DNA of 64,000 nucleotides from an uncultured virus (IMG/VR IMGVR_UViG_3300023202_000179) (taxonomy: Duplodnaviria > Heunggongvirae > Uroviricota > Caudoviricetes). The stretch lies in the IMG/VR virus record IMGVR_UViG_3300023202_000179; one strand, given 5' to 3'. Positions within the stretch are counted from its first letter, which is position 1; the number at the start of each line of letters is the position of its first letter. The notes below the pieces were generated by a model. That model searched no databases and had not been told where the DNA came from. It saw only the letters and a program-made list of their open reading frames with translations. Below are positions 24,106 through 52,897 of this stretch, piece after piece. A program made the translations under genes and the position numbers.

Positions 24106-24134
24106 TTGACATCGCTGAGAGGCGGGAGTAGTCT
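24106..24134 (+). promoter_or_regulatory. Sigma70-type promoter of the Cas12/TnpB-like gene
   Basis: TTGACA-17 nt-TAGTCT. Confidence 0.7.
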
Positions 24135-24145
24135 CGTGCCTGAGG

Positions 24146-25714
24146 ATGGAGATGGAGAAGACGATTATCAGAGCCTACAAGTTCCGGTTGTACCCGAACA
24201 AAGCCCAGATCCGGCGCTTCGAGCAGTTCAGCGATGCAGCCAAGTTTGCATGGAACTGGACACTCCGGTTTACCCAGAAGCAGCGAGAAGACGAGCTCAT
24301 CAGACTGAGGCTGCTTGAACCTCTGGATCCGGACAAGAAGCTGAGCAAGCCCCAGAGGAAGGCGCGCAAGTTCGCGATCCGAGACGCCGGGAGGAAAGCC
24401 AAGGAACTGGGTCTACCGCTCAAGCTCAGTTACAACAAGAGAGTCAAGAAACTAGTAGATCTCGGGTTTCTGCAGTCCACCGAAGAGCCCACAGGGAAGG
24501 CAGAGAAAAAAGCGAGGAGGATCGAGGTAGAGCAAGCCGAAAGGCGGGCAGCCGAGAGCGGGTACATTCTCCCTCCTCCGGAGCTCGACCCGCTGACCCT
24601 CTACCGCTGTTTCTGTCAGGAGAGGGATACCAATCCCGATTTCGCTTGGATCAAGAAAGAAGAGATCTACTCCCACGCATACAAGTACCCGATCGATCGC
24701 TTGGTCAAAGCGTACAAGGATTGGTTCAATTTCTTGGAAAAGAAGGGACCGAAAAAAGGACCCCCACAGTTCAAGGGGAGGACCGCTCCTTTGTCCTTCA
24801 CGCTACAGTTGCAGAATTGGATCTCCGTCGAAGGAGGGCTGAGAGTCCCGGGACTGAAGCGCAAAGCGGACGACAAGAGCATGTATCGGGTGAGGTGTCG
24901 TCCGAACCCGGAGGACATCATCAAATCCGGGAAGCCGTGTGAGATCACCGTCCGTCGCGTCGCCGACCGCTGGTACGCAACCGTCGTCTTCAAAGAGGTC
25001 CTGTACGAGCCGAAGCCAACACCCAGGAAGACAGCGGTTGGCGTCGATCTAGGGCTGAACAGTCTCGTCACCTTGTACGATGGCGAAGGGTACCGAGAGG
25101 TTGAACCCCCCAAGTGTCTTGCCCGTGCCCAGAAGATACTCGCAAAGCTTCAGCGGCAGCAAGCCAAGAAAGTCGTTGGATCGAAGCGCCACTTCAAACA
25201 GCGGATGCGAGTGGCGCGTCTCCATGCACAGGTAGCCAACACCCGCTACGATTTTTTGCAGAAACTCTCTTGCAAACTGGTGGACGAGTATGATACGGTT
25301 GTCGTCGAAGGTTTCGACGTGTCCAAGCTAGTTCACACAGGGGTGGAAGGGACCAACAAGCAAAAAGCCAGCAAGCGCCTGAAAATGCTGGATGCGTCTT
25401 GGGGGGAGCTCCGGCGGCAGCTGGATTACAAGTCCAACTGGAACGATCGAGTTTTCATTGTCCCACCCAAAAACGAACCGACTGACCAGACCTGTTCGGA
25501 GTGCGGAGCGCTCAACAAGCCCTCACTCAAGACCAGCGTCTACAAATGCAGCGAGTGTGGATTTTCCTCGACAAGACAGAGGAACACCGCTAAGCTTCTA
25601 CTGAGTTTCGCCACCGGCAACGGTGGAGGAAGTACCCCGGGTGGCGGGGGAACTTACGCACGTGGAGTGGAGGGTAAGTCTCCTTCGGAGGCGGATCTCC
25701 ACACTGAAGCGTGA
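24146..25714 (+). CDS. tnpB: CRISPR-associated TnpB/Cas12f-like protein (type V), RuvC-III Asp replaced
   Basis: N-terminal RAYKFRLYPN..Q...AWN (IS605 OrfB HTH), RuvC-I VGVDLG, RuvC-II VVVEG, CxxC..CxxC zinc ribbon, RuvC-III reads TRQRNTAKLL rather than xRDxNAAxNI; adjacent to the array. Confidence 0.9.
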   Translation: MEMEKTIIRAYKFRLYPNKAQIRRFEQFSDAAKFAWNWTLRFTQKQREDELIRLRLLEPLDPDKKLSKPQRKARKFAIRDAGRKAKELGLPLKLSYNKRVKKLVDLGFLQSTEEPTGKAEKKARRIEVEQAERRAAESGYILPPPELDPLTLYRCFCQERDTNPDFAWIKKEEIYSHAYKYPIDRLVKAYKDWFNFLEKKGPKKGPPQFKGRTAPLSFTLQLQNWISVEGGLRVPGLKRKADDKSMYRVRCRPNPEDIIKSGKPCEITVRRVADRWYATVVFKEVLYEPKPTPRKTAVGVDLGLNSLVTLYDGEGYREVEPPKCLARAQKILAKLQRQQAKKVVGSKRHFKQRMRVARLHAQVANTRYDFLQKLSCKLVDEYDTVVVEGFDVSKLVHTGVEGTNKQKASKRLKMLDASWGELRRQLDYKSNWNDRVFIVPPKNEPTDQTCSECGALNKPSLKTSVYKCSECGFSSTRQRNTAKLLLSFATGNGGGSTPGGGGTYARGVEGKSPSEADLHTEA

Positions 25715-25768
25715 ACGACTACACCTTCGGGAGGTGTCCCGGGGAGGCCCAACCTCCCCGGGTTTTTT
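25645..25768 (+). ncRNA. Putative tracrRNA / omegaRNA-derived scaffold overlapping the gene 3' end
   Basis: GAACTTACGCACGTGGAG...CTCCACACTGAAGCGTGAA resembles TnpB omegaRNA scaffolds; 25711-25735 pairs 21/25 with the CRISPR repeat; ends in a terminator; 5' boundary is approximate. Confidence 0.75.
25738..25768 (+). terminator. Rho-independent terminator ending the cas/tracr transcript
   Basis: CCCGGGGAGG-CCCAA-CCTCCCCGGG-TTTTTT. Confidence 0.9.
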
Positions 25769-25885: not shown

Positions 25886-26681
25886 GTAACATCAACCTCC
25901 CGAACGAGTAGACGATCACACGAACTTCCGCCAGTCGGCCTCGCTCGCGAAGTCGGCTGTAACATCAACCTCCCGAACGAGTAGACGATCACACCGGGGT
26001 CCCGTACTTGCTGATGTCAACGATCTTCCGGTAACATCAACCTCCCGAACGAGTAGACGATCACACTCGGTGTCTTCGCCAGTCACGCTCATGCGCAAAA
26101 TCGTAACATCAACCTCCCGAACGAGTAGACGATCACACGCGTTGAGAAAGGCGTGGATCCACTCGTCTTTGATGTAACATCAACCTCCCGAACGAGTAGA
26201 CGATCACACCGACCGCCTCGAACTCCCCTGGACGTACATGCAAAAGTAACATCAACCTCCCGAACGAGTAGACGATCACACTGGAAAGCGAACGCCCAAC
26301 GAAGATGCCCTTGCATGTAACATCAACCTCCCGAACGAGTAGACGATCACACTCAGTGGAACGCTCGGCAGAAGTATCCGCTGGATTGGAGTAACATCAA
26401 CCTCCCGAACGAGTAGACGATCACACTGCGGCACCTCTACAACGAAGACGACTTGAGACGGGTAACATCAACCTCCCGAACGAGTAGACGATCACACGAA
26501 GGACATCGATTGAGAAAGGCCAAGGTAACATCAACCTCCCGAACGAGTAGACGATCACACGAAAGCTGGATTTGTTCTCCGATTTGCCGTGAGCGGTAAC
26601 ATCAACCTCCCGAACGAGTAGACGATCACATGCCGAGATGATCGCGTAACATCAACCTCCCGAACGAGTAGACGATCACAC
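25886..26681 (+). CRISPR. CRISPR array: 12 repeats of 36 bp, 11 spacers
   Basis: Repeat GTAACATCAACCTCCCGAACGAGTAGACGATCACAC at 25886, 25959, 26031, 26103, 26174, 26246, 26317, 26391, 26462, 26525, 26596, 26646; spacers 35-38 bp except 27 bp and ~14-15 bp near the right (trailer) end. Confidence 0.98.
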
Positions 26682-26725: not shown

Positions 26726-26776
26726 CGAGGAGGGAGAGATGGTTTCTTTTCTCAGAGAGTCGACTTGGTAACCAAG

Positions 26777-29700
26777 ATGAGCGTAGACCAGGATCCAGAT
26801 GTTGTCAAGGGGGTACCGCCCAATCTTTCTCTGCAAAGGGGCGGGTGGCTCCCAGATGCAGCCCTTGAACGCTACGGAAGCCGATTCCTGGCCGTTGCCA
26901 AGGCTTTAGCCCACATCGGTAACATCGTCCCGGGTTTCGTCAACAAGGTCCCGCGGGTGAAGTTCCAGCGGTTCCATCACATTGGATCTCCGCGGATCTC
27001 CGACGAGCTCATGCACTCTTGGGGTCTTGGTTGCAGCGACTTCGACGGGCACAACGCCGTCGGTCGCCTCCCTCGCGAACCGGGGGAGGACGATCCGGTC
27101 GATGCAACACCGCTGTTTCTTGTAGCGTCGGGACGCATCGGCGTGATCGACGTCGACGACATGAAAATGCTGCCGACAGTGCTAGATGTGCTGCCCGATT
27201 CACCGCTTTGGGTCTCCACCGGCCGCGACGGAGGCGGTGTACACATCTACTTCAGAACCCCCGAAAAGGTACAGTCGCGGAACCACATCCTCCCAGGCGT
27301 TGATCTCAAAGCGCACGGCGCCTATGTCGTAGCCCCCGGCGCGCTACATGCCTCGGGTATCGAATACACCTGCACCCTCAGATACGAGGACCTCTCTGCC
27401 GGAGGTTGGTGGGGATCGCTGCCTATATTGACGCAGGAGATGCGCAGCGATCTCGTCGCTCTGGGTCAGGCTCTCAAAGGGCAGCGGTCACGCTCGCGCG
27501 GAGCGATGAAGCGAACGCGAACCGAAGCGGGGCCACACCCCCTCGAAGGTGCCGAGCTCAAGGCCGGGGAGATCCCCGCGGAAATGACGCAGCGCTACGG
27601 GTCTGAGGGCGAGCTTACCATCGAGCCGACGCCCCAGATCGAAACGTTCTGGCGCGTGGTCGACAAAAACGTTGGCGACGCCGTGTTCCGCGAGGGTGCG
27701 CGAGAAGCGGTGCGGCAGGTGTACGGGCTGGCCTGGGACTACCTCGCCAACCCGGAGACCGACTGTCGCGACAGTGACATCCCCGAGTGGATCCACCTCG
27801 CCGTACGCTTGTCACCTTGGATGAAAAAAGCGGTCCCGGCCTGGCACATCGAAGCGCTGCGACATCACTTCCCCCGTTTCTGGTCAGGTCTGGAGAGTGA
27901 GCCAGGCTACATGTGGGATCCGCTGCTCGACACAAGTGCGCCGACCGCGGGTCCATGCGATTTTTTGACCCATGCTCTGAGTTTAAAAAACGAAAACCGA
28001 AGCGATCTCGACTGGTTGAGGAAGAAACAACCCAAAAGTGCGGCAATCGCGGGTCCACCAGAAGCTAGAATTAACTACTCAGTAGCTGGTGACCCCTCGG
28101 AGTGTGGGATCGCGGACCGCGTTCGAAGTCGAGTTCGCAGTGCGGGTGAGGAATGTTCGATCCGCGGTGGACTTATCGTCGCTGGTATGGGCACCGGAAA
28201 AGGCGAGGTCGTTCAGGACTACATCGACAGGTGTGAGGCCAGCGGTCTCACGTACCGCGTCGTCGTTCCGTCCAGAGCGCTCTCCTACGAAGCGGCGGCG
28301 CGTTTTTCGCTGAGGCACTATGCTGACTCGGCAAATACGGCACAAGCGACGACCTTACAGTCAGCGCTCAAAGCGCAAGAGGAATTCGACCGGTGGATCG
28401 TCGACGAGATGCGCGATCTACTCAGTCAGATCTTCTCGCTCAGCGGAAGCAAAGGACGCGATCAGTTGGACGAGCTTTGTAAGTTCGCGGCCCGAGGGGC
28501 GTTGCTCGCGACCTGTGCTGACATGACCGAACGCGCGTCTAAGGCTTTTTGTGAAGTGGTCAAACATTATTGTCGCGACCGCCAGATTCCCGAGGTCGAC
28601 TTCCCGGTCCGCTTCGTTGAAGGGCATGTTTTACGTAAGACGGTCGAGCGTTTGACGCTCGATGAGATCGATGAAGCATTGTTGGAGTGTACGGGCAAAT
28701 CGCAGGTGTTGTGCGCTTCTGTCCGCGGTGCCGAGACCGTTGTGCAGCTACTACTCGCCGCTGGGAAGAACGTCTACCCGAACATCGTCGGGGGTGACCG
28801 CAGCCGCAAACCATGCCGAAACCTCGATGAGGTTTTCACGATGTATGACGTCGTCGTCGGTACAAGCGCCATGGCAGTTGGGGTCAACATCAACACACCG
28901 CTGGACCTCCAAGCGGTTTACTACGATCACAACGGCACGACCCCGCGAACGATTCGTCAGGGTATCGGCCGCGGAAGGAAATGTGAAAACGTCAAGATCT
29001 ACGTGCCGGGGTGGGGGGCAGGTCCGAATCGATCGCGCGCGCGACCGACACGTATCCGGACAGTCAAGCGTATGCTTACTGAGCATCACAAGGTGGGGCG
29101 AGCGCTCGCTGGGCATACTTACGAAAACGGGTTGTACCACAACGATGCGGCGCTCTCGTTGTGGGCAATCCTCGAAGCCGAAGATAACCAGGGCAAGAAC
29201 GACCCCGTCGGCGAGTTGCAGCGCATGTTTGACGCGGTGAGATGGGAGCACGAGCTCGGCTACCCAGGTGAGAACGAGCCGTCGGCCGCGCGCAAGATCG
29301 CCAAAGGTGAAGCGGTTGACGAGGACGTACAGAACATCCGCACCGCCCGCAAGATGAACGAGCCCGAGTATGTGGCGGTTCAGAACGCTGTCGAACCGAC
29401 GGATACGCAGATATACGCGAAGCGGCGCTACGAGATCGAGACGTTCCATGGTGAGGAGATCGGGGCGTCGAATCAGGCCGAGGAGGCCGGGCGCCGTCAA
29501 GAGCTGACGACCGCTGACCGCCGCGGACGGTTGCGCGAGCGCATCACACGTTCCCAGATCGCTCAAGCAGTGCAGCGCCACGGTACCGACGTCTGTCTCC
29601 TCGACATCGCGGTCCGCGGAAAGGGCACTTACGACAAGGAGACCGATCGTTGGGTTCAGAGAGCGACGACTCAGCGCACGACATGGCGCGCGACCCAGGT

Positions 29701-30148
29701 TTGGCTCGCAGCGTTCCTGTTCGAGCAGCTCACCAAAGAGAAACCTGGCACCGTTGTAACGTTACCGCTGAATTGGGATGTGGACCTCGCTTTGCTTCTT
29801 GAAAGCGAAGCGGCGGTGTTGCGGGTCGCTGGTGAGTCTTGGACGTTGCGATCACTGGCCCAAGCGATGCACCCGAAGCGGTACATCCCGCGCAACAGTC
29901 AGCAGGTCAAAAACTGGGCTCTCGGAGTCTTCCGCTCGTGCGCTCACATCCCACAACCGATAAGACGACGCGGTGTTCCGGGAGATCCCGATAGACGCTG
30001 GCGGGAGTACACCATCGAGTGGTTCGAGGAGAAGCCGGGATGCACGCAAGCTGAGCTCGACGAAGAGATCCGGGTCTCCAAACTGCAGATTGCGGAGGTC
30101 GAAGGCGAACCGCTTGACGCCGTGCGCGATGTGTGGGATAGGGTCTAG
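26777..30148 (+). CDS. Bifunctional primase-polymerase fused to SF2 / origin-binding-protein-like helicase
   Basis: VIDVDD, STGRDGGGVHIYF, GVDLKAHGAYVVAPG (Prim-Pol); AGMGTGKG, IVDE, TSAMAVGVNI, QGIGRGR. Confidence 0.8.
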   Translation: MSVDQDPDVVKGVPPNLSLQRGGWLPDAALERYGSRFLAVAKALAHIGNIVPGFVNKVPRVKFQRFHHIGSPRISDELMHSWGLGCSDFDGHNAVGRLPREPGEDDPVDATPLFLVASGRIGVIDVDDMKMLPTVLDVLPDSPLWVSTGRDGGGVHIYFRTPEKVQSRNHILPGVDLKAHGAYVVAPGALHASGIEYTCTLRYEDLSAGGWWGSLPILTQEMRSDLVALGQALKGQRSRSRGAMKRTRTEAGPHPLEGAELKAGEIPAEMTQRYGSEGELTIEPTPQIETFWRVVDKNVGDAVFREGAREAVRQVYGLAWDYLANPETDCRDSDIPEWIHLAVRLSPWMKKAVPAWHIEALRHHFPRFWSGLESEPGYMWDPLLDTSAPTAGPCDFLTHALSLKNENRSDLDWLRKKQPKSAAIAGPPEARINYSVAGDPSECGIADRVRSRVRSAGEECSIRGGLIVAGMGTGKGEVVQDYIDRCEASGLTYRVVVPSRALSYEAAARFSLRHYADSANTAQATTLQSALKAQEEFDRWIVDEMRDLLSQIFSLSGSKGRDQLDELCKFAARGALLATCADMTERASKAFCEVVKHYCRDRQIPEVDFPVRFVEGHVLRKTVERLTLDEIDEALLECTGKSQVLCASVRGAETVVQLLLAAGKNVYPNIVGGDRSRKPCRNLDEVFTMYDVVVGTSAMAVGVNINTPLDLQAVYYDHNGTTPRTIRQGIGRGRKCENVKIYVPGWGAGPNRSRARPTRIRTVKRMLTEHHKVGRALAGHTYENGLYHNDAALSLWAILEAEDNQGKNDPVGELQRMFDAVRWEHELGYPGENEPSAARKIAKGEAVDEDVQNIRTARKMNEPEYVAVQNAVEPTDTQIYAKRRYEIETFHGEEIGASNQAEEAGRRQELTTADRRGRLRERITRSQIAQAVQRHGTDVCLLDIAVRGKGTYDKETDRWVQRATTQRTTWRATQVWLAAFLFEQLTKEKPGTVVTLPLNWDVDLALLLESEAAVLRVAGESWTLRSLAQAMHPKRYIPRNSQQVKNWALGVFRSCAHIPQPIRRRGVPGDPDRRWREYTIEWFEEKPGCTQAELDEEIRVSKLQIAEVEGEPLDAVRDVWDRV

Positions 30149-30151: not shown

Positions 30152-31720
30152 TTGATCACCGCTGAAGCCGCTAAAGAACTCGACCTACCAACGGTCAGCC
30201 CCTCTCAGATCAAGACGTGGCGTGATTGCCCGCGCAAGTGGGGGTTTGAGAAGCTCGACGGGCTGCGCGGCGACCCCGGCCAAGGCGCCATCATCGGCGG
30301 TGCGGTACACAAAGTGCTCGAAGCATATTTTCGTGGCGAACCGCTGCCGAACTATAGCCAGCGTGTGTTGAAAATCGCGCGAGCGATGATTGACCACTAC
30401 ACCATGCGCGGGTGGACAGCACCGCTCCCCGGGAGTTGCATCGAGCGCGAGTTCTGGCTATTGCGCGATGGGTGGCTGTACCACGGTCTCAAGGACATCA
30501 ACATCCGGCGCGCCGGTCGGCGTTTGATCGTCGATCACAAGACGAGTAGCAACCCACGTAAGTACGGCCTCACGGATGCAACGCTACCTCACGACGAGCA
30601 AGCGCTCATCTACGCCATCGACGATCTTGAGTCTTTCGATTTGAGAGAAGTCGATTTAGAGTGGACCTACGCCCGTAACAAGGGAGCACCGGCACCATAC
30701 ACGGTGAGTTGCACCTTGCATCGCTCCTTCGTTGAGGATAAGATGGGGGCGATCGATGTCACCGCTCGCGATATTGTCCGCGCCCGTCGAGATGCGGAAC
30801 GGGCCATCAACCTCGAACCTGCAGGTCACTACCAGCCGCCAGATAAGAGCGCTTGTGGCAAGTACGGCGGCTGCCCTTTCATCCAGTTCTGCCCCCGCCG
30901 GATTTTAGTCACTGACCTACTTCCACCAGACGACGACGAAAACGACATTCAACAGGAACAAGACATGTCAGCACTCGACCAACTGAAGAAGAAAATCAAG
31001 AAGGCTCCCCCCAGGAAGGAGGATCTAGAAAAAACCGGGCAGGCGAAGCCGGCCACCGCTCGCAAACTTAAGAGGGAAAAGCCCGCGGATCCCAAGGACT
31101 CCAAAAAGAAGCGCTCCGCGCTGTCTCTGGTCAAGGGTGACAAGAAATCTGGACGAGACCCCCAAGAAGTCCTCGACAAGTACGACCAGATCGAACAGGA
31201 GAGCGAAGACTCCGCTATCGAGACCAAGGCGCCGCAGGTCAACGCTCCAGAGGTCGACAACGGCAACAACAACGACGAGTTGGTTGCCGCGAGTGAATCG
31301 GCGATCATGGAGACCGAAGGTGGCAAGCCAATTCTCGACAAGGAGGAGCTGCGGCGCCAGGCCGAAGAGATTGCAGCGAAGAATGCCGGGAAGGCCGAAC
31401 CGTTGGACGCTGCGGCGGTCATGAAACGTTTGTACGCAACCGAAGACAAGTTACTGCGGTTGTCGGTAAAACGCTCAAACGACAGCGGCGTATATGTGCA
31501 AAACAAAACGTTGCAAACGCTTGAAGCCAACGGCAAGATCACATGGTTCAAGGATGGCCAGGTCGCGGTTGTCCAAGCCCCCGACGCGACCGAACGCCAT
31601 GGCGATGTGTGGCTGCAATGCCTCCAGGTCGCAGCGCAGTACACCGATGGCAACGACCGCGACGAGGTCATCGCCAACGCTTGCCACTTCTTTGAAGCAT
31701 ACCGCGAGCAGTTCGGTTGA
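30152..31720 (+). CDS. PD-(D/E)XK Cas4/RecB-like nuclease with long C-terminal extension
   Basis: SPSQIKTWRDCPRKW, GGAVHKVLE, IVDHKT, QALIYA, CGKYGGCPFIQFC (4-Cys cluster). Confidence 0.8.
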   Translation: MITAEAAKELDLPTVSPSQIKTWRDCPRKWGFEKLDGLRGDPGQGAIIGGAVHKVLEAYFRGEPLPNYSQRVLKIARAMIDHYTMRGWTAPLPGSCIEREFWLLRDGWLYHGLKDINIRRAGRRLIVDHKTSSNPRKYGLTDATLPHDEQALIYAIDDLESFDLREVDLEWTYARNKGAPAPYTVSCTLHRSFVEDKMGAIDVTARDIVRARRDAERAINLEPAGHYQPPDKSACGKYGGCPFIQFCPRRILVTDLLPPDDDENDIQQEQDMSALDQLKKKIKKAPPRKEDLEKTGQAKPATARKLKREKPADPKDSKKKRSALSLVKGDKKSGRDPQEVLDKYDQIEQESEDSAIETKAPQVNAPEVDNGNNNDELVAASESAIMETEGGKPILDKEELRRQAEEIAAKNAGKAEPLDAAAVMKRLYATEDKLLRLSVKRSNDSGVYVQNKTLQTLEANGKITWFKDGQVAVVQAPDATERHGDVWLQCLQVAAQYTDGNDRDEVIANACHFFEAYREQFG

Positions 31721-37206: not shown

Positions 37207-37911
37207 GTGTCAACGCACAGTAGTCTTTACGGCGAAGGACATCTCAACGCTACTCGCACTCGCGAGTGCGTTGCGATGCCTGGGGTACGAGACCAGCGGG
37301 TGCAGACTCCCGATTGCATCATTCAAGCACTGTGGGATCTGTGGGAAAACGGCATCGCTTACGACCCCGCCCACTGCGAGGGGTCTTTGGTTAACGCGGA
37401 TGCGTGTACCAGCACCCGAGGTCTCATCGACCCGTGGCCGGATTTTACCTACTGCAACCCGCCGTACGGTCAGAGCCTCTTTGACCCGGAGAACGAAATG
37501 GAGACGCACCTCGCTGAACTGGAGATCCGAAACAAACGCAAAGCGGTACGAGACCACAACAAGGCGCACCCCAACGACAAACGCCCGATGCCGAAGTTCG
37601 CTCCCGGGATGCCGATCAAGAAGGCAGGGCTCAAGGACTGGCTACAGATGCAGACCGACTTGAGCCTTCCTCGCCGGGAGATCGTGATGCTGGTCCCCAA
37701 CAGAACCAACCGCCCCTGGTTCCGAAAGTGGCGGAGATACTGTGACGGTTTGGTCGAACTCAACCCCCTAGCGTTTAGGAAGTTCAACGGCAAGACCGGG
37801 AAGTGGGAGCAACAGAAGTCAGCTTTTCCTGCACCGCTTGTTCTCGGGTACACCGGAGTGGCGGTCGGACGGTTTCACCGAGCCTTCTCTCATCTGGGAG
37901 ATCCCGTATGA
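37207..37911 (+). CDS. Phage DNA N6-adenine methyltransferase (Dam-like)
   Basis: YDPA, YCNPPYG, VMLVPNRT..WF, SAFP. Confidence 0.8.
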   Translation: MSTHSSLYGEGHLNATRTRECVAMPGVRDQRVQTPDCIIQALWDLWENGIAYDPAHCEGSLVNADACTSTRGLIDPWPDFTYCNPPYGQSLFDPENEMETHLAELEIRNKRKAVRDHNKAHPNDKRPMPKFAPGMPIKKAGLKDWLQMQTDLSLPRREIVMLVPNRTNRPWFRKWRRYCDGLVELNPLAFRKFNGKTGKWEQQKSAFPAPLVLGYTGVAVGRFHRAFSHLGDPV

Positions 37912-38713
37912 CCTTGGGGCGAGGAAAAGCGAAACACATCCTTGAAGCTGAGAAGAAGGTTCGACGTGCGCTGGAAGTCGAAAGGTGGAACAGAAGTTGA
38001 ACGGAATCATTGCACACGGATCCTGCAAGATCACTCCTCCCGGAAAGCAGAGGTATGAACTCACATCCTTTGCCTCCTCGTATAGAACTGCCACCCAAGT
38101 CTATGCGGTAGCGTATTCCGAGTCTGACATGAGCCTCAATGTCAGGTTGCTTCTGAATGTCACAGTCAACGGCATGTTGGTGTTCCCGTGCCCGGTTGTC
38201 ACTGATATATTCAGTCAAGGTCCTGTTGATGTCCCATGCATCGAAATACGGGATCGAGGTTTCGTAGAGGCTCATATTGAAAGTAGCTCGAAAATCGGAG
38301 AACCCGTAGAGGTTCGGGTCTGGGTCTTCGGGAGCGATCGCCCTCCTAAACCCCCCCTGCGATACGAGACCCGCAGCTATTATAAATGAACTACCCTGAG
38401 GCAGCGCACTTGTTGGACTTCATCCACAAGCGCTCATTATCCTACTTGCTCCACGTCATCGAAGAGAAAGACGCGATCACGGAGTGGCAACTTCTCCGAG
38501 ACCTCGTCAATCAGATCAAAGTTGCCGAGAAGGAACCTATGACAACTAGACTAGAAGACCGAAATTTTCAGTGTGAATCCGGCAGCAACAAAGTCACCCT
38601 TGTCTTTGGGGGGAAGGTGCCGGTCCGTCGGACAATGTCCCTAGAGAAAGCCCGGATGCTAGCTCTCGCCCTTTTGCAGGCAGCAACGAGGGCAACGTGA
38701 AAGGATTTGATGT

Positions 38714-39418
38714 ATGCGCGCTATAGCGGGCAGTCTGTTCTCCCTTCTCGCCGTCGCGTGCGGGGACCCCCACACAGTTGAGATCAGGTTATTCACCGAC
38801 GACGACCCGTACCACCTTCTGGACCCGGACCCCGAGGTTCGAGCGTTACTCGACCAAGCTGGGGATCTTCTGCGGAGAAAGCTCGTTCCTGTCCGAAACG
38901 CTCCTATCGATATCGAGTTGGTCGACACCCGTGGCGGGTACGTGGGACGAGCATCGAAGCTAGGGCTGTGCCGGTACCATGCACGTTCGTCCTATGACTC
39001 TCAGGTCCTGGCTCACGAGCTTGCCCACGTCCTCGGTCTGGAGCACGTCAGCGAAGAAGATGACAGGGTTCGGTTCAACCTGATGCAGCCGGGGATTCGA
39101 GGTGTCGAGCTCACCGGGAACCAGTACGCCCGCATGGACAGGACATCTACCAAGATCGAACGCTGGTGTTGGGATAGCACGGAGCCCACGGAAAGGAGTT
39201 CCTCACGTGGAGAGACCTTATGCGAACTTGCTGGACCTCTTGTTGGAGATCAACCCGAGCGGGTTCGCTCTGAACAAACGCTGGGGGCCGGGGAAGCAAC
39301 TGAGCCGGGCGTGGTTCAACGACAAGAAGCTGCTACGGCAGGAGATGAAGCAGGAACGACGGGGCTACGCGAAGACGGAACCAGTACGGGCTGGTCTATT
39401 TTTTTCGAGTGGCTGTGA
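38714..39418 (+). CDS. Metzincin-like zinc metallopeptidase lipoprotein
   Basis: LAVAC lipobox; HELAHVLGLEH; Met-turn NLMQP. Confidence 0.75.
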   Translation: MRAIAGSLFSLLAVACGDPHTVEIRLFTDDDPYHLLDPDPEVRALLDQAGDLLRRKLVPVRNAPIDIELVDTRGGYVGRASKLGLCRYHARSSYDSQVLAHELAHVLGLEHVSEEDDRVRFNLMQPGIRGVELTGNQYARMDRTSTKIERWCWDSTEPTERSSSRGETLCELAGPLVGDQPERVRSEQTLGAGEATEPGVVQRQEAATAGDEAGTTGLREDGTSTGWSIFFEWL

Positions 39419-39608
39419 CATCGACGCCCCGCTCAAGGCGGTGTTCGATGCCGGACAAAAAGCGGTCTATGCTGACGACTCCCAGATCGAGGATGCCGTC
39501 TTGCACGTCGTGCGCGAAGACGAGCCCTGGATTTTGATCATGTTTGAATTCTTGTGCTCTCCGAGGGACAGTGCTATCGTGGCGCTGTACGAGGAGATGA
39601 ACGGATGA
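39207..39608 (+). CDS. rusA: RusA-like Holliday junction resolvase
   Basis: DIDAPLKAVFDA...VYADDSQI; AAAGGAG RBS before GTG 39207. Confidence 0.7.
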   Translation: MERPYANLLDLLLEINPSGFALNKRWGPGKQLSRAWFNDKKLLRQEMKQERRGYAKTEPVRAGLFFSSGCDIDAPLKAVFDAGQKAVYADDSQIEDAVLHVVREDEPWILIMFEFLCSPRDSAIVALYEEMNG

Positions 39609-39781
39609 CCCCTGAAGAAATGATTGACGGATTTCTCCTGACGGTGTCGGTAATTATCGTCATTGCAGGGGCAGTCGTAGGATTCTAATCCAAGGGGCGG
39701 AGCGTGCATGGTGTGCGGGGAGATCCCGTGACGACCTTTTGTTGGGGTGGCATGAAACACACGCTTCGCCCCTATTTTTCG

Positions 39782-39813
39782 CATCAACCTCCCGAACGAG
39801 TAGACGATCACAC
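39782..39813 (+). CRISPR. Orphan CRISPR repeat (last 32 of 36 nt, exact match)
   Basis: CATCAACCTCCCGAACGAGTAGACGATCACAC, ending 17 nt upstream of ATG 39831. Confidence 0.95.
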
Positions 39814-39830
39814 GCACAAGAAGAAAAACG

Positions 39831-40772
39831 ATGACATCTAATCCAAGAGGTTTCTACGGGCTGTCCTGGCTGCTCTTCATCTTCGCTTCGATCTGCGGAG
39901 CAGCTCTGCTGGTAGGGTGCAACATCGAAGCAGAAGGGGCTGTCAGCTTCGAGACGGACACCGGAGGCAGAGAACCGCTGCCACCGAGACCCCCCGATCT
40001 CGGGCTCGAAGAGTACGAGCCCCCGTTCAAACTGGACCTCCCCGAGGCCCAGGGATGCGATCAACTTGATGTGCTGTTTGTGGTGGACAACTCCGGAAGC
40101 ATGCTTGACAAACAGCAGCAGTTGATTGGGGCGGTCCCTGGCTTCATCGAGCAACTGCAACGCTTGGGGCTCGGCTTCGACATGCACATTGGCGTTGTCA
40201 CGACAGACAGCTACGACGCCAACGCTCCCGGCTGCCGAACCCTCGGGGCGCTCGTGACCCAGAACCTCGACGAGGAGTGCTCGTTCGGTTCGGGTGAGCG
40301 GTTCATGTCGCCTGAGGATCTACAGGCCGGAGCCTTCGAGTGCGCTTTCAATGTCGGCACAGCCGGTCACGCGACAGAGCAGCCCATCCTCGCTCTGCGA
40401 CGAGCCCTGATGCCGTCCAGCAACGGAGACGGGTCCCCCTTCGGGGTCCGGTACGACGAATGTAACGAAGGCTTCCGACGTGAAGGGGCAGCCTTCGTTG
40501 CTGTCATTCTCACCGATGAAGACGCGCAATCCCCGGACAGTCTTGATCGATGGCTCGAAGAACTGGACTACCTTCTTGGAGACGTGACCCAGCTCTACGT
40601 CGGCTTCGTCGCCATGGGCGAGTGCGGGCACAACCCGTCAACACGTCTGTTGGAATTCTTCGATGCGGTTCCTGCGCATGTTTCTTCCGTTTGCGCTGAC
40701 TACTCCGCGGAGTTTGAGGTTGCGACGCGCACCCTCGCAGATTCTTGTGCGGTAGCCGTGCCGCAACTTTGA
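39831..40772 (+). CDS. vWA-domain lipoprotein of myxobacterial type
   Basis: LLVGC lipobox, DVLFVVDNSGSM (MIDAS), HIGVVTTD, FRREGA..ILTDED. Confidence 0.8.
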   Translation: MTSNPRGFYGLSWLLFIFASICGAALLVGCNIEAEGAVSFETDTGGREPLPPRPPDLGLEEYEPPFKLDLPEAQGCDQLDVLFVVDNSGSMLDKQQQLIGAVPGFIEQLQRLGLGFDMHIGVVTTDSYDANAPGCRTLGALVTQNLDEECSFGSGERFMSPEDLQAGAFECAFNVGTAGHATEQPILALRRALMPSSNGDGSPFGVRYDECNEGFRREGAAFVAVILTDEDAQSPDSLDRWLEELDYLLGDVTQLYVGFVAMGECGHNPSTRLLEFFDAVPAHVSSVCADYSAEFEVATRTLADSCAVAVPQL

Positions 40773-40899
40773 AACGGCGCTGATGTAGTTTCGGTGGTAT
40801 AGTTCGGACATGAAACTGCCGTCGAAACCGAGCGACCCTGTTTTTTGGCGGGATCGTACCTCAAACTGCCACCACCGGTCTTCGCCTCGAGGATGAACC

Positions 40900-42585
40900 A
40901 TGGCGCAAGTGAAGTTACCAGCCGGGCTCCCCTCGCGGTGGCAATCCCCCTACGGGATCTCAGAGATTCATGATCTCGCCGCCAGGGGTGACTCGGTAAC
41001 AGCCTGGCAGACGAAAATCAGCGAGTTGAGCTATTCTGCGGTGGCGCGGGACCAGGCCCGAAGCTGGGCGAATCTCATGCAGCCCTTGATGGTTGGCGTG
41101 AACGACACGGCGGGTATTCCTATGAGTGTGGCCCAAACCGTCGTCAACAATATCGGGGACTTTGCACTCAATCCGCCCAAAAACCCAAAGCAGCTGGTTG
41201 AAAGGTTGGCGCGGACGGGGGTCGCGACGGCCATCAACATCGTCGGAGCTATCCCCATTGTGGGTCCGATTGTGGAAGGTGTTGCAGGGTTGGTGGAGAC
41301 GTTGGTGGACACCTACCGTAGGGAGACCCCACCCCCCAAAGACTTCTTGCCGATGCTGAAAGACGACGAGGCCCGAGACGAGTTGCTTGTCAATAACGTG
41401 ATCCTCAACGTGGCAGGCGGATCGTACAACTGGAACGATCTTTTCAGCCCTGTTTTCACGGGGGGGTGGACGGTCGAGCAGCGGTCCAACGGTTGGTTGT
41501 TCCGGGGGAAACAGGTCAGACCTGGGGCGTGCGGCTTCATCCCCGGATCCTTGCAGTGTTCGAGGGAGATCCAAGCATGGTTCTTGACTTGGTCCCAGGT
41601 CGACTGCGCACCCGGGCGCTGCACCGATGAGCAAAAACAGAAAATCGAAGCCCTTTGGGGCACTCCGCAGATCACCGGCGTCTTTGGGAAAAGAGAACCT
41701 GGGGCCAACCGCAAACAAGTCCAGGTGCCCACCACAAACCCATCCAACCGCGGCGGAGACCTTCCAGATTCGATGGATTTAGGTTCTTGGTTGACAGGAG
41801 CGTCCCAATGCATCGCCGAGCTTGAACAGCAGTGCCAGGGATATAGACCGCCGGGGAGTAAGCAAGCGCTTGCCCAATCCCAGATGTGGTTCATCAACCC
41901 CGACCTGATTGCAAAACGGTGGAAAAACTACATCCTGAGCGCCGTCGAGTTCGCCCACAGGCTGTACCACGGCGGGGTGAAGGAAGCGGGAATCGGAAGC
42001 CTCAGTGAAGAGTACCGACAGTTACTGGCCAGAGCATTCCTGAAACAGTTTCTGGTATCCACCCACGATGACAGGAAAGCCGGAGCCTTTTCCTTGCTCA
42101 GCTGGGATTTCAAGCTCACCAAACTCCCCACCAACACCATCTACCACAAGTGGATCCAACCTTGGGCCTCCACCATGATGCAGCGCCAGCGGGCGTTCAC
42201 TGATAGCTATCTTGTCGCGACTGCCCCCTGGGAAGGCGGAGCCTACGAAGACAACCGAGAACTGCGAACTTTGGTGATGGGCAACCAAAGCCGCCTTCTT
42301 CGGCACCCTGCCAGAGACAAAGTAGACCAGAGAGACATCATCGTACCTCAGTACCGGGAAGCGATGTTCGAAAACACAGCGGGGGGCCGTTTGACGTGGG
42401 GTCAGCCCGTCGCAAGGATTACGGAAGGGTTCACCGGCATCGAAACAGCAGCACGCCCGTCACCCCCTCAAGGCGGATCCCCTTTTGAAGGGGCTCTTCC
42501 CAGGGGGGCCCCGTGGTGGGCCGTTAGCGCAGGTCTTGGTATCTCCGGGATCGGCGCGTACCTGTTGTGGAAGATGCGGAGGTGA
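40900..42585 (+). CDS. Large hypothetical protein with C-terminal TM anchor
   Basis: 561 aa; ends WWAVSAGLGISGIGAYLLWKMRR. Confidence 0.65.
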   Translation: MAQVKLPAGLPSRWQSPYGISEIHDLAARGDSVTAWQTKISELSYSAVARDQARSWANLMQPLMVGVNDTAGIPMSVAQTVVNNIGDFALNPPKNPKQLVERLARTGVATAINIVGAIPIVGPIVEGVAGLVETLVDTYRRETPPPKDFLPMLKDDEARDELLVNNVILNVAGGSYNWNDLFSPVFTGGWTVEQRSNGWLFRGKQVRPGACGFIPGSLQCSREIQAWFLTWSQVDCAPGRCTDEQKQKIEALWGTPQITGVFGKREPGANRKQVQVPTTNPSNRGGDLPDSMDLGSWLTGASQCIAELEQQCQGYRPPGSKQALAQSQMWFINPDLIAKRWKNYILSAVEFAHRLYHGGVKEAGIGSLSEEYRQLLARAFLKQFLVSTHDDRKAGAFSLLSWDFKLTKLPTNTIYHKWIQPWASTMMQRQRAFTDSYLVATAPWEGGAYEDNRELRTLVMGNQSRLLRHPARDKVDQRDIIVPQYREAMFENTAGGRLTWGQPVARITEGFTGIETAARPSPPQGGSPFEGALPRGAPWWAVSAGLGISGIGAYLLWKMRR

Positions 42586-42954
42586 ACCAGGGAAATGAAA
42601 ATGGAAATTTGGAAACTTGCAGTAGGAAGTCTCGGAGCGACGGCTGTTGACCTCAACAAGGTAGGGAAGGATAAGCCTTTTTGCGTGTCTGGAGACATAG
42701 ATGCCGAAGCGTTGACCGAAGCATTCGAGCGCCAATGGGACTATTCAGGTCTTATTCCCGGGGATTTCGAAGACCTGGAAGACGCTAAGAGGAAGGCGAA
42801 CGCGGTCGCGATCCGCACCCTTCACGAGTTGTGCCCAGAATCGACGACCAAGAACTGGAGGAAGAGACTCAACAGAAAAGCGCTTGTCGAGATCTACGAC
42901 TCCACTTACAACTGGGCGTTCACTCGCCTCACTTCCTAAGAACGGCTAGGCACG

Positions 42955-47212: not shown

Positions 47213-47288
47213 TGGAGCCCTGGGACGGGATCGAACCGCCGACCTGCGGAGTACAAAACCGCTGCTCTCCCAGCTGAGCTACCAGGGC
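47213..47288 (-). tRNA. tRNA-Thr (anticodon UGU) with encoded CCA
   Basis: GCCCTGGTAGCTCAGCTGGGAGAGCAGCGGTTTTGTACTCCGCAGGTCGGCGGTTCGATCCCGTCCCAGGGCTCCA; 76-nt cloverleaf. Confidence 0.9.
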
Positions 47289-48278: not shown

Positions 48279-51200
48279 AGCTCTTCTTTGGGTACCACAC
48301 GGAGGCGGGTCTTGGTGAAGCTCCGTTTGCTTTTGATCTCAGGGATGTACACGTCGACTCGGCGATCGTACCTGGTAGGAGTCCCTGTCACTACACCCCT
48401 AGCGATGACGTCTTTGAAGGAGACGTCTTCAAGGATGTCGACGACGGTCTTTTTTCGGAAAGTATTGTCGAGTCTGGGTAACAGAGGTTTCACAGGTTCT
48501 TCTTCCTTTTGTTCGGTGAACCGCTTGTTGCAGAAATCCCAGTGACGGTGCAAGAGAAGAGCGAGATCCTGTGCCAGAGCCGTCCTCAGACCTCGCGCCC
48601 AAAGGAAGTGGTGGGCTTCAGCTCCATGCCCGCGCCAACCAGGAAATTTGGAGCGACGGATCAAGTACATGAGAGGCTGTACGTGATCAAGAGGAATGCG
48701 GTGAAGTTTGGCAAAGGAATGGGCTTCCTCAGCAATCCCCGTCCATTCTCCCGCATCGTGAGAGGCATTCTCTGGCTCGTTGCTCATAGGTTCTTATCCT
48801 TGAACGCTCACTGGTGATTTTCCTTCAGACATTCTTCCACATCCTCAAGCATCTTGATAAGGACTTTGACGGAGTACCCCTCTCCGTCTGTCTCTTCCAG
48901 GTGGCAGATGGCTTCGTTGAGGGCAAAAAACCGTCCACGATCAAAGTCAGATTTGGATTTCTTTTCTCTCACGGACAACCATTTGGCGAGCGGGCTCGAA
49001 AAAAGTTCAGCGAGTTTGGTGCGCCATTCTCTTGCGCGTTGCAGCTCGTTCATAGCCCCAGATACCTCCGTTCTTCCGACTCCCCTCCGAGGGAGTACTC
49101 GTCTTCGAGATCGTCTCCGAAGACGTCAAAAAGGTCGTCTTGCTCGTGCCCTTCAAGGAGCTCTCGAAGTTGCTCCGCGATCTCATCATAGGCATACACC
49201 CTTTCAATGGTATCTGCCAGCGCTGAGAACAGGAGATTCAACTCAGCGTAGGTTGGAGGGAACAGACGGCGGAGCGAGAGACGGAACAGGCAGTCGTGCA
49301 CGAGGAGGCACATCTCGGGTTGGCTCTCTCGGTGTTTGAGGTGGAACAACTTGACCCTCCGCATCAACTCCTCGCTGTCCTGTGGAGGCAGGAGCCTAGG
49401 CTTCATGCGACTCATTTCACAGCTCCGTGGAGGGTCAGCGCTGTTGCGAACATCCTCCGCAAGGTCTTGACGTTGCTCGGGTGCCCAGCCACGACGCGAC
49501 GTCCGCGTTCGAATCCTTCTGTAAGTTTGCTTAGGATTTCCGAGAAGTGGAACGGCTTCAACAGAGAGCTCCATTTCCGCGGGACCAAGATTCGCTGAGG
49601 AGCGTCTCCGTGGATGCGGTTCAACAGCACATTCATGCCCGTGTCCCATCGCCATTCGTCGCGTGGGGAGCAAATGGACAGTGCGATGCCGATGGTCTCG
49701 GGGTAGACTTTGAGTCCAACGATCCCGCAGTGGACAGGCCACCACGCGTCTTTGGGGTCAATCAAGAGGAAGGTGAATAGTTCGGGGTTCATCGTCTTGT
49801 ACTTCTTTCTAGGGCCGAGATGATTTCCGCGCGGTCTGTGAGAGGTGGAAAGGACCGTCCGCTAATCCAGTTCTGGACGTCTTCCAGGGAGATCTCTTTG
49901 TCGACTTCCCGGGCCCGGGTGGAGACCATTCGAGCGGACATGTGAGGACGGTGCATGCTGATGATTTGGAGAAGGAAGAGCCGGAATGTGGTTGTGCTCA
50001 TAGGAGGAGTTGCTGGTGCGGGTGGTCGTTTCGGGGGAGCATGGCGACGACCTTGCGTGACCGCATCGTCGTCCCAGTTTTTCTGAGCGTTATCCTGGCA
50101 CAGGCTCCGAGCTCCACGTACAGATCCGTGTACTCGTGCCAGGGAGGTTCTTTCTTTGCCTTATTCGGTTTCAGCCTGCGGAAGAGTACGTTGTCTAGGT
50201 CGACTTCGAACTGAGCCCCTGAAGCTGTGATGAAGGTGCAGAATCTGATTCTAGTTTCAACGTTAGTCGTTGGCTGAGAGGACATCGGACACCAGTTCTA
50301 GTGCTTCTTCATGTTCTTGAAGTTGTTTCTTGATAGGGCGCAGACTTCGTTCCAGTAGTGCCTCGAAGTTCAGGATCTCTGACTTCATGGTCCGAATCTT
50401 CCGCTGGATCTCTATCAAGACATTCTCTACTTGCTTCGGGTTCATGTCAGTTTTTGCCTTCTTTCACCTCAGCGGACGGAGACAGACCGTACATCGACCT
50501 GCACCGACTTCAAGAGGGACAAGGACATGGCACCGAGGACAGGGACGGCTTTGTTGTGGACGAAGCGATGTATTTTGGATCGGACGCCACTGTATCGACT
50601 CTGCGACAAGCCCTAGGACGGGGACGCAGCCATAGCCTCCGCACGAATCGCATTGCTCCGGCGGGTATCCTTGGGGCTGCTCCCAGTCCCCGGGAGAGCC
50701 GCCGTCGTGCCCGAGACCTCGGCACTCCCGGCACCGGACGTGGTCTGGGAGCACGGGGAGCGGCGTGTGCCAAGGGTTCACGACCGCCTCCACAGATACA
50801 CGTTGGGCAGTACTTGGATGCGCTTGCCGACAGCCGGGCACTCGTCGATGACTACAGGGTGTGAGCAGCAGTAACTCATGAAGGTTGCGGCATCCTCCGC
50901 GGCTTTGTCGGGAGACTTCTTGATGTCGACACCGTTGGCGAGGAGCTTCCCTGCGCGCCCGAGCGCTTGCCACTTCCATCCAGGTCCGACTTTCAGGATT
51001 TTGATTGTTCCGGTGTCCCCGATCCTCATTCGCCCTCACTCTCTTCGAGATCCCATTCATCGATCTCGTCGTCGCCTTCGTCGAGGGGAGGAAGGCTGAG
51101 CAGATCGACTGCCTTGTTGAAGTGACTCAAAGCGGTCTCGATGGACGCTTGAGCCTGAAGTACGTGCATTGCTGCGAAGTTGACATCCTCCACAGGGTAG

Positions 51201-51882: not shown

Positions 51883-51904
51883 CGTGTCTGCTCCTTACAC
51901 CAGT

Positions 51905-52651
51905 CTAGTCTCTCGGGGTGAGACGATCGGCGACGCACCACAGAGCCATCTCCGGGGACATCTCCGCACACAAGTCGAGTCTCTCCGGGGTGAGATGATC
52001 AGCGGCGCGCCGCAGAGCCACCCACGGGAGCCTCTCCGCACACCGATCGAGTCTCTCCGGGGTGAGATGATCGGAGGCGTACTGCAGAGCCGCCCACGGG
52101 AACCTCTCCGCACACCAATCGAGTCTCTCCGGGGTGAGACGATCGGGGGCGTACTGCAGAGCCACCCACGGGAACCTCTCCGCACACCGATCGAGTCTCT
52201 CCGGGGTGAGACGATCGGCAGCGAACCTCAGCGCCGCCCACGGGATCCTCTCCGCACACCGATCGAGTCTCTCCGGGGTGAGACGATCAGCGGCGCGCCG
52301 CAGCGCCGCCCCCGGCTGCTTCTGCGCACACCAGTCAAGTCTCTCCGGGGTGAGACGATCGGCGACGCACTGCAGAGCGACCCCCGGCTCCTTCTGCGCA
52401 CACCAGTCAAGTCTCTCCGGGGTGAGACGATCGACTACGTGCTTCAGCGCCGCCCACGGGAGCCTCTCCGCACACCAATCGAGTCTCTCCGGGGTGAGGT
52501 GGTCGGTGGCGTGCTCCAGAGGCCAGTCGGCGTACTCCTCGATCACCTCTTCCCACGTCCGGGGAGCTTCTTCCAGCCATTCGAGAGCGTCTTCGCAGGC
52601 TCCCCTCTTCCGAGCGGTTTCGATCTCTTCGGGTGTGATGTAGTCGTTCAT
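51905..52651 (-). CDS. 24-aa tandem-repeat protein A (8 full repeats)
   Basis: GGAGG RBS; MNDYITPEEIETARKRGACEDALEW + (LTPERLD[W/R]CA...P..AL..A.D[R/H])n; 72-bp DNA repeats. Confidence 0.85.
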   Translation of the reverse strand: MNDYITPEEIETARKRGACEDALEWLEEAPRTWEEVIEEYADWPLEHATDHLTPERLDWCAERLPWAALKHVVDRLTPERLDWCAQKEPGVALQCVADRLTPERLDWCAQKQPGAALRRAADRLTPERLDRCAERIPWAALRFAADRLTPERLDRCAERFPWVALQYAPDRLTPERLDWCAERFPWAALQYASDHLTPERLDRCAERLPWVALRRAADHLTPERLDLCAEMSPEMALWCVADRLTPRD

Positions 52652-52897
52652 CTGTCCTCCTTTATACGAGCTCACGTCGATCTGGTTGCTGTCTTCCATG
52701 CCCCAATAAACGCATCTTCGGTGCGTGTATTCAACCAAAAAGCCACCAGCTGGCAAGAAAACACGTAACTAGTTGAAATCATTGGATTTTTACCTAAATC
52801 GACCTACATCTCAGTGCTGGACGTCTACATAAGGCTCATTTAGTAGACTTTCCCTCTTGACCTCGACCGAGGGCTGTGCCAGGGTGCGGAGGTCCCA

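Follow-up and report, generated by a model that had tools for sequence, protein, structure and literature searches.

Why would a phage that carries its own CRISPR array keep one further copy of the array repeat well away from it, abutting the ribosome-binding site (RBS) of a host-like gene? We addressed this question in 64,000 nucleotides of DNA from an uncultured caudoviricete virus (IMG/VR record IMGVR_UViG_3300023202_000179), referred to here at its full length as the window, in which a 32-nt element lies just ahead of a gene for a von Willebrand factor A (vWA)-like protein. By its sequence and setting, this element is a genuine solitary repeat unit (SRU), a known kind of element, here belonging to the phage's own type V CRISPR system. 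The role that we propose for it is tentative and, in our judgment, somewhat short of an even chance: the SRU would make the leader of the vWA mRNA a substrate for the phage's putative trans-activating CRISPR RNA (tracrRNA) and effector. The features needed to follow the argument are these:

25886..26681, plus strand, CRISPR array of 12 repeats of 36 nt (starts 25886-26646) and 11 spacers
39782..39813, plus strand, solitary repeat, identical to positions 5-36 of the array repeat
39814..39850, plus strand, sequence in the spacer position, whose first 20 nt, GCACAAGAAGAAAAACGATG, are the purine-rich RBS and ATG of the vWA gene
39831..40772, plus strand, vWA-like predicted lipoprotein gene, 313 aa, with a metal ion-dependent adhesion site (MIDAS) motif DxSxS

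The segment 39782-39813 (plus strand) matches positions 5-36 of the 36-nt array repeat GTAACATCAACCTCCCGAACGAGTAGACGATCACAC at 32/32 nt and is without the first 4 nt of the repeat, having TTCG instead of GTAA. A search of the whole window with the 32-mer CATCAACCTCCCGAACGAGTAGACGATCACAC, allowing up to 3 mismatches, returned 13 sites against 0.00 expected (100 shuffles): 11 exact sites and one with 1 mismatch in the array, and a single exact site at 39782-39813, on the array strand. The 3' 20-mer of the repeat recovered the same 13 sites in the window and no extra partial copies outside 25886-26681. From the last array repeat to the start of the lone copy, which lies downstream, is 13,100 nt, and from its end to the vWA ATG at 39831 is 17 nt. 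The original prediction, an exact 32-nt repeat copy on the array strand, ~13 kb from the array and ending 17 nt short of ATG 39831, was therefore borne out in every part. The match also reaches 2 nt (GC) into array spacer 4, giving a 34-nt hit to 26107-26140. No second repeat is present at spacer distance, and the sequence past 39850 is unlike the repeat. We rejected two ways of making the copy part of something larger: a mini-array, which requires two repeats around one spacer where there is here a single partial repeat, and a 13.1-kb insertion into the terminal spacer, which finds no GTAA remnant at spacer distance after 26681. The element is thus identical to the array repeat and stands alone, without hidden copies, as an SRU should, and we infer from its sequence that it is a recent copy of an array repeat that arose by copying.

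We were concerned that a lone repeat might be an artefact of assembly, produced either by wrongly joining two stretches at the repeat they share or by collapsing a second mini-array. The repeat is longer than k = 31, though below typical read lengths, so that contigs built at this k break there. The original prediction had called for the assembly to be verified with reads, and for this we used the Logan k = 31 contigs of public DNA run X1, a run that may come from the source sample and hence cannot count as independent; the window stretch is absent from runs X2 and X3, and among the public runs listed for 39300-40300 none is of RNA. One X1 contig of 13,160 nt extends from the last array repeat to 39811, and another of 12,235 nt extends from 39784 downstream. 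Both junctions of the lone repeat are therefore present in contigs, the left flank with 30 nt of the repeat and 30 nt of the repeat with the right flank, and the left junction is unique and without GTAA. The unitig of the 32-nt repeat has a depth of 167.5 versus 13.0-13.8 in the flanks, or 12.5 copies, and 12.5x is the depth expected from 12 exact copies plus one copy with only the first of its two 31-mers. Because the unitig depth equals the assembled copy number and leaves no hidden copies, a collapsed second array is very unlikely, and we regard an assembly artefact of either kind as scarcely credible. The k-mers thus supplied the desired check for both junctions and for copy number; pairing of the two flanks across the lone repeat is beyond k = 31 and rests on the original 65,437-nt contig.

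The system to which the repeat belongs is encoded upstream of the array, where four features follow closely on one another:

24106..24134, plus strand, sigma-70-like promoter TTGACA-17-TAGTCT, recognized by its consensus only, 12 nt upstream of the effector's start codon ATG
24146..25714, plus strand, effector, a 522-aa TnpB-family CRISPR-associated protein
25710..25736, plus strand, putative tracrRNA anti-repeat CGTGAACGACTACACCTTCGGGAGGTG, overlapping the effector stop codon
25738..25768, plus strand, intrinsic-terminator-like hairpin of 10 pairs (9 G-C) followed by six T

The promoter consensus TTGACA N16-18 TANNNT has 4 matches in the window versus 0.46 expected. The effector matches the Pfam families OrfB_IS605 (3.4e-25), Cas12f1-like_TNB (2.1e-12), and HTH_OrfB_IS605 (3.7e-11) and scores 196 bits against the NCBIfam model guided_TnpB (cut-off 100). 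It falls below the family cut-offs of V_cas_c2c8 (V-U2; 72 versus 350 bits) and Cas12f2 (41 versus 450). Its best natural PDB match is ISDra2 TnpB (1e-35), with partial and weak matches only to Cas12m (1e-05) and LaTranC (2.4e-07, ~160 residues), and its nearest homologues are 34-48% identical. The array begins 172 nt downstream of the effector gene, and it is by such a TnpB/RuvC-fold effector beside a CRISPR array that a type V system is recognized. The effector is this 522-aa TnpB-family protein and not the 1141-aa primase-helicase (26723-30148). When 180 fetched loci were passed through a k-mer detector, 11 were flagged with arrays, among them the effector homologues L001-L005, L007, L008, L011, and L081, and the 36-nt repeats of these relatives, read in effector orientation, end in the same CGAT..CAC-like 3' motif. 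By homology, the window effector is a member of a CRISPR-associated TnpB clade. Two of the loci hold two adjacent arrays with related but distinct repeat variants (L011:8212-10341 and L007:4307-5676); in L011, 13 copies are followed by a 510-nt gap and then by 11 copies differing at 5-8 positions, which suggests array duplication and divergence within the effector clade.

We asked whether this effector is likely to cut DNA. In an HMMER alignment to ISDra2 TnpB, the Asp of RuvC I (GVDLG) and the Glu of RuvC II (VEGFD) are kept; RuvC III reads TRQrNTA versus DRDeNAA in TnpB, which places Gln at D361 (8bf8_A numbering), a residue that we take to be catalytic in ISDra2 TnpB. The effector therefore departs from an intact RuvC D-E-D triad. 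The change is shared: in a 32-sequence alignment, RQ is found in 17/17 clade members (P0001-P0017) and RD in 15/15 more distant TnpBs (P0018-P0030, P0060, P0071). Published reports state that mutation of any D-E-D triad residue abolishes nuclease activity (bioRxiv 10.1101/2023.11.30.569447), that one triad residue can occupy an alternative position in TnpB relatives (bioRxiv 10.1101/2023.11.30.569447; PMC10691335), and that many inactivated, probably regulatory TnpB derivatives exist (Altae-Tran et al. 2023, PMC10691335). The window effector is probably a binder rather than a cutter, and because TRQxNTA is present in all 17 clade members and the Asp is kept in all 15 distant TnpBs, we favor a binding or regulatory system. 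The clade keeps the zinc finger and may be an unnamed type V group with an impaired nuclease.

Type V and TnpB systems usually have their guide scaffold encoded where the effector gene ends, on its 3' side. At this position in the window, the candidate anti-repeat 25710-25736 pairs with repeat positions 9-35 at -30.9 kcal/mol, and the minimum free energy fold of 25560-25925 (z = -4.57) has the first repeat paired with 25710-25736. Together, the anti-repeat and the terminator-like hairpin look like a split omega-RNA. Repeat-complementary segments were also found in four relatives (-54.7 kcal/mol in L008, -36.9 in L007, -34.3 in L081, and -25.1 in L001), located either within the final 200 nt of the effector match or between that match and the array.

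In the array itself, nine spacers measure 35-38 nt, while the ninth in order is 27 nt long and the eleventh 14 nt; in repeat 11, the last base is changed from C to T. Because the eleventh repeat ends in T, we place the decayed end of the array at the right and the leader at the left; the truncated distal spacers (26498-26645) and the change in repeat 11 indicate trailer-end decay, as far as the sequence tells. No Cas1, Cas2, Cas4, or Y1 transposase was found among the 54 open reading frames (ORFs) scanned with Pfam. The stretch 30152-31720, which has a weak PHROG hit to "CRISPR/Cas system associated", was rejected as CRISPR-associated and is a PD-(D/E)XK exonuclease. Searches with the array spacers and the lone-repeat "spacer" against the window and the 180 loci gave short chance-level hits only. 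At the distal side of the array, a consensus promoter TTGACA-17-TACGCT on the minus strand (26694-26808), inside the start of the prim-pol gene, faces a 14-pair hairpin and T-run ending at the last array repeat. This arrangement could give an ~85-nt antisense RNA over the primase RBS and start.

What, then, could the lone copy do? Four of its properties can be read directly: its sequence identity with the array repeat, its copy number, its potential for pairing, and its position relative to the RBS. The original prediction had offered three options, namely a self-contained single-guide cassette, a site in the vWA mRNA at which tracrRNA and effector load, and the scar of an ectopic insertion. 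The first found no support. In the predicted fold, the hairpin that precedes the copy is unpaired with the repeat, and it shares with the tracrRNA region one reversed 12-mer only. The lone repeat would need the trans-encoded tracrRNA, as the array units do. The second option is plausible. The lone copy retains all of positions 9-35, so that the segment that pairs with the anti-repeat is whole, and its predicted in-context duplex with the tracrRNA candidate has an energy of -37.4 kcal/mol, against -38.6 and -41.2 kcal/mol for two array repeats.

If the leader is such a loading site, a transcript crossing 39782-39813 would carry the full array-type tracrRNA-pairing segment 17 nt from the ATG, and the vWA leader would be treated as a thirteenth repeat-spacer unit because the tracrRNA pairs with the repeat. 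The resulting duplex might be cleaved by an RNase of the host, or bound as such, and what the effector would then hold, as the guide part, is RNA containing the vWA RBS and start codon. Acting in cis, this would occlude the RBS and ATG, or the leader would be cut, and vWA expression would be tied to the level of effector and tracrRNA. The 17 nt between the lone repeat and the ATG are the purine-rich RBS, and a similar start context is seen at many phage genes. Because this gap is so short, anything bound to the repeat and guide would cover the translation start. Because the clade has Gln for the third RuvC Asp, binding rather than DNA cutting would be expected. Transcription through the repeat, processing, effector loading, and the effect on vWA are steps that we infer, each in its own right. 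There is published background for parts of this scheme: SRUs produce regulatory CRISPR RNA (crRNA)-like RNAs beside non-cas genes (bioRxiv 10.1101/2024.12.27.630466), and noncanonical crRNAs can derive from mRNAs via tracrRNA pairing (Jiao et al. 2021, PMC8224270).

The proposal has to be judged in its immediate surroundings, where the following features were recognized:

39102..39608, plus strand, RusA-like resolvase gene (Pfam RusA 1.4e-05, phrog_140 3.1e-05), the last recognizable upstream gene
39620..39688, plus strand, possible 22-codon hydrophobic small ORF MIDGFLLTVSVIIVIAGAVVGF, an ORF only, with its stop codon within direct repeat copy 1
39684..39697, plus strand, direct repeat copy 1, TCTAATCCAAGGGG
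39693..39779, plus strand, branched 81-nt hairpin (39693-39773) followed by TATTTTT, terminator-like or a small structured RNA
39837..39850, plus strand, direct repeat copy 2, TCTAATCCAAGAGG, within vWA codons 3-7

Both the long stem with its T-run before the copy (fold 39693-39773, TATTTTT) and the direct repeats that bracket the block at 39684 and 39837 had been noticed in the original prediction and were found as described. The arms of the hairpin are 39694-39706 and 39760-39772, and its fold of -42.8 kcal/mol (z = -3.45) was equaled by 2/200 shuffles. A simple terminator scan did not pick it because of its large loop; because a T-run follows directly, it looks like a terminator, and we see it as closing the RusA operon, 5' of the lone repeat. 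The 14-nt direct-repeat pattern TCTAATCCAAGRGG occurs at exactly those two sites in the window and nowhere else, versus 0.03 expected, for a pattern chosen post hoc, having been seen first. The 37 nt that follow the lone repeat have the length of an array spacer and end exactly at the end of direct repeat copy 2. Small ORFs across the block (39704-39841 and 39739-39834) were considered and found unconvincing. Separately, the 12-mer GGGAGATCCCGT occurs three times, at 39718-39729, 37896-37907, and 25799-25810, one of them as the reverse complement in the array leader, and shorter GAGATCCCG variants occur at several further sites; possibly this is a motif or small hairpin that recurs in the phage.

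The vWA product has a Pfam VWA score of 0.0015 (below cut-off) and a lipoprotein-like signal peptide, whose lipobox we take to be LVGC. It gives a partial match to CglD, a lipoprotein of gliding motility, in the vWA part of the latter (2.5e-08, well under the cut-off), and a search with the CglD family found no match in G001 or 14 controls. Among its 348 homologues, the closest is 55% identical and the named ones are mostly from Nannocystaceae, for which reason the host is probably a marine myxobacterium. In alignment A2, residues D86, S88, and S90 are invariant, and conservation does not extend to the N-termini. The window comes from a novel phage, whose products include a tail-spike-like beta-helix protein, an M15 endolysin, a prim-pol/helicase (the 1141-aa ORF at 26723-30148), a PD-(D/E)XK exonuclease, a helicase, a family A DNA polymerase, RusA, an integrase, and one tRNA, the last being tRNA-Thr (TGT) at 47213-47288 and the only Rfam match in the window at the gathering threshold. 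Given the tyrosine-integrase-like gene at 56082-57062 (phrog_1, 1.7e-22), the phage is probably temperate. Farther along, 51897-53742 holds two inverted arrays of 72-nt tandem repeats coding for 24-aa repeats (LTPERLDWCAE..PWAAL.YAADR). These make up three paralogous genes (51905-52756 minus, 52898-53455 plus, and ~53453-53742 plus), two of them divergent around a 140-nt A+T-richer spacer, with a weak DUF6374 hit only. A link between these tandem arrays and the hairpin ahead of the lone repeat was rejected: 39709-39730 resembles the repeat unit at 21/23 positions (E = 3.6), which we treat as chance.

A number of observations weigh against a role of the lone repeat in the vWA leader. The stable hairpin and its T-run stand 2-9 nt upstream of the copy and may stop most read-through, and a sigma-70-like promoter scan of 39000-40200 found none. 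If the vWA promoter overlapped the repeat (TTCGCA-17-TAGACG), the transcript would begin only close to where the repeat ends, on its 3' side, and the mRNA would be without it. The tracrRNA assignment is not unique either. In a duplex scan of 5,101 tiles (mean -13.4, standard deviation 3.95), the tile at 25701 scored -30.5 and the tile of an unrelated site at 50101 scored -31.7. A second repeat-complementary segment, 50122-50150 (plus strand, -33.1 kcal/mol), is followed by a T-rich stretch and lies inside a minus-strand gene block; its complementarity is probably chance, and because it scores slightly better, the assignment of the tracrRNA rests on position as much as on energy. The effector has a single RuvC change, which is not proof of lost activity, and a compensating residue may exist elsewhere. 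The 14-nt direct repeats that flank the block hint at a one-off insertion event.

Searches of the phage collection and of viral contigs found no related phage or syntenic locus: the DNA of 38700-42600, the array, and the orphan block had no match in the phage collection, and vWA and PolA as single proteins had no relatives in the viral contigs of IMG/VR. A search with the vWA alignment found 29 viral loci, at best 37-41% identical, and in tblastx of these loci only L181 and L182 rose above the cut-off, with the vWA gene alone covered and no synteny. Neither viral contigs nor metagenome contigs held an exact match to the 32-nt repeat, and the representative genomes of 185,579 species held none to its 25-nt core. 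Stray repeats were present in 0/6 related loci checked (up to 8 substitutions in 36 nt), and in the one relative with a whole genome 15/15 repeat copies lie in the array; given these counts, a lone repeat is not a regular part of such systems.

Several of these points would be expected if the copy were an inert scar, in which a one-off recombination, gene conversion, or template switch copied 32 nt from the array to a place where they do no harm and, even if processed now and then, serve no selected function. This is the third option of the original prediction: the flanking direct repeats do hint at an insertion, and although a scar is unlikely in itself, it is nearly as likely as the loading site in the vWA leader. 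The perfect identity fits a recent event; the 14-nt direct repeat, unique in the window to this block, marks an insertion or duplication; the 2-nt GC extension into spacer 4 could be junction microhomology; and a replication-blocking hairpin stands at the left junction. The relatives checked have no comparable stray copy, and the would-be guide is without a target in the collections searched. Set against this, the copy sits at the one place abutting an RBS, it is present in the population consensus at ~13x depth, and any mechanism for the event would be conjectural. Nor are the direct repeats a simple target-site duplication. If the block is taken out at the direct repeats, no start codon is left for vWA, with an in-frame TAG 2 codons upstream and no ATG, GTG, or TTG within the signal peptide, and we rejected a target-site duplication from a recent insertion into an intact gene because the joined form has no start. 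The same block could also act in trans, as a thirteenth guide with which the effector silences host or rival-phage alleles that bear a target-adjacent motif (TAM) where this phage has the repeat, the phage's own copy being immune by construction. The TnpB-derived effector with its altered RuvC III, the integrase gene (56082-57062) of a probably temperate phage, the host-like vWA gene with its surface- or adhesin-type product, and the precedent of TldR and fliC_P (bioRxiv 10.1101/2023.11.30.569447) are consistent with such a role, and TATTTTTCG, the T-rich stretch to the left of the repeat, could be a former TAM. We nevertheless consider it distinctly unlikely, since the guide found nothing to act on in the collections searched and the vWA homologue nearest to this one, at only 55% identity, is unrelated at the N-terminus. 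The original prediction had suggested a BLAST search of the guide, and no target emerged from the window, IMG/VR, or the phage collection: the best non-self matches to the 20-nt guide in the window are 15/20 at two sites, one 11/12 seed match at 55552 is about at chance level by our own estimate, IMG/VR gave 0 loci, and the phage collection gave no match. In the most elaborate version, a temperate myxophage with a non-cutting effector has its lone repeat set exactly between a former T-rich TAM and the start region of a host-derived adhesin gene, so that the leader of this gene yields a guide silencing the host or rival allele, where the TAM is still present, and not the phage copy, whose TAM the repeat has replaced; this version has only a slim prospect of being right as a whole.

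Two further explanations leave the guide aside. The repeat may have been exapted as DNA, giving vWA the promoter TTCGCA-17-TAGACG, whose first hexamer is at the left junction. The gene comes straight after a terminator-like hairpin, which leaves ~55 nt for its promoter, and the spacing and TAG start resemble the plus-strand promoters TTGACA-17-TAGTCT (24106) and TTGACA-17-TAGGGT (43169). The hexamers, however, match at 4/6 and 3/6 positions, the invariant final T of the -10 element is missing, the promoter scan is negative here, and the idea is post hoc, which together leave this explanation very unlikely. The lone repeat might instead be a decoy that imitates a CRISPR repeat of the host and ties up the host's Cas proteins. 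Phage-encoded solitary repeats that act as RNA anti-CRISPRs (Racrs) have been described (Camara-Wilpert et al. 2023, PMC10651486), and both are solitary repeats of viral origin. Racrs mimic host repeats, whereas the copy here is identical to the phage's own, and a decoy against the phage's own effector would be unexpected. The 32-mer is also absent from metagenome contigs, as is the 25-mer core from the representative genomes of 185,579 species, and we give the decoy next to no credence.

The setting can be compared with several known systems. Virus-borne mini-arrays consist of two repeats around one spacer, and here there is a single partial repeat. Arrays and mini-arrays carried by viruses are reportedly the subject of work by Medvedeva in 2019 and Faure in 2019, and intermediates between TnpB and Cas12 (TranC) are said to have been treated by Jin et al. 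in 2025. Like the TranC and V-U groups (Altae-Tran et al. 2023, PMC10691335), the window has an effector nearer to TnpB than to named Cas12 proteins, an array without adaptation genes, and a putative scaffold RNA that overlaps the effector gene at its 3' end; the clade is left here without assignment to a numbered V-U group. The typical-TnpB clade in that report has DRDXN at RuvC-III, and the window clade has TRQxN. The myxophage MV-1 (bioRxiv 10.64898/2026.09.14.751636) is alike in having a type V effector and an array without adaptation genes and in its likely myxobacterial host. Its effector, a Cas12m, has 610 aa and keeps the D-E-D triad intact, and a tracrRNA was not recognized, in contrast to the 522-aa TnpB-family protein with Gln at RuvC III here. 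The roles proposed for such virus-borne systems are interviral conflict or host modulation (bioRxiv 10.64898/2026.09.14.751636).

Closest to the leader reading are the SRUs of the CreA/CreR "CRISIS" systems (Shu et al., bioRxiv 10.1101/2024.12.27.630466). There too a lone repeat is found next to a non-cas gene, in its 5' region and at a distance from the array, and loading of the resident effector with regulation without cleavage has been proposed. Those SRUs belong to type I systems and have degenerate repeats, and their spacer-like part partly pairs with a nearby promoter next to a protospacer-adjacent motif (PAM). The window, by contrast, has a perfect repeat in a gene leader and a putatively tracrRNA-dependent TnpB-like type V system of a phage, and within it we found no partial promoter complementarity beside a PAM of the kind that marks a regulatory crRNA-like RNA. 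The noncanonical crRNAs of Jiao et al. 2021 (PMC8224270) are alike in that a tracrRNA-complementary mRNA segment yields a guide whose spacer is the adjacent mRNA; these concern Cas9 and imperfect, fortuitous matches, where the present case is a perfect repeat copy of a type V system, recognized from sequence alone. TldR with fliC_P (Wiegand et al., bioRxiv 10.1101/2023.11.30.569447) shares a phage TnpB derivative, an altered RuvC, and a host-like surface-protein gene. In that system, the phage guide represses the host fliC homologue and the phage copy escapes by TAM and seed changes (bioRxiv 10.1101/2023.11.30.569447). TldRs have an omega-RNA-like guide at their own 3' end, at least 2 RuvC changes, often a truncated C-terminus, and no array. 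The window differs in its 12-repeat array, its putative split tracrRNA, a change at 1/3 RuvC residues, a zinc finger that is kept, and a guide-like site 14 kb from the effector, and its effector accordingly lacks the features by which TldRs are recognized.

The setting is an unusual one: a repeat of a phage's own putatively tracrRNA-dependent, probably nuclease-impaired type V system abuts the RBS of a host-like adhesin gene. If the copy is a scar only, it is still a record that a phage genome can acquire copies of its array repeats far from the array. If the repeat did replace a TAM, the locus would be a surface-protein swap like that of TldR and fliC_P, with a CRISPR repeat as its raw material, and would show in a living system how a single repeat placed beside a target creates a new guide. 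The effector clade, with its putative 3'-overlapping scaffold, sits between transposon TnpB, Cas12, and nuclease-dead TnpB-like regulators. Should the lone repeat indeed make the vWA leader a substrate of the phage's tracrRNA and effector, regulation by SRUs would extend from type I to type V and TnpB-derived effectors, and to the control of accessory genes in phages.

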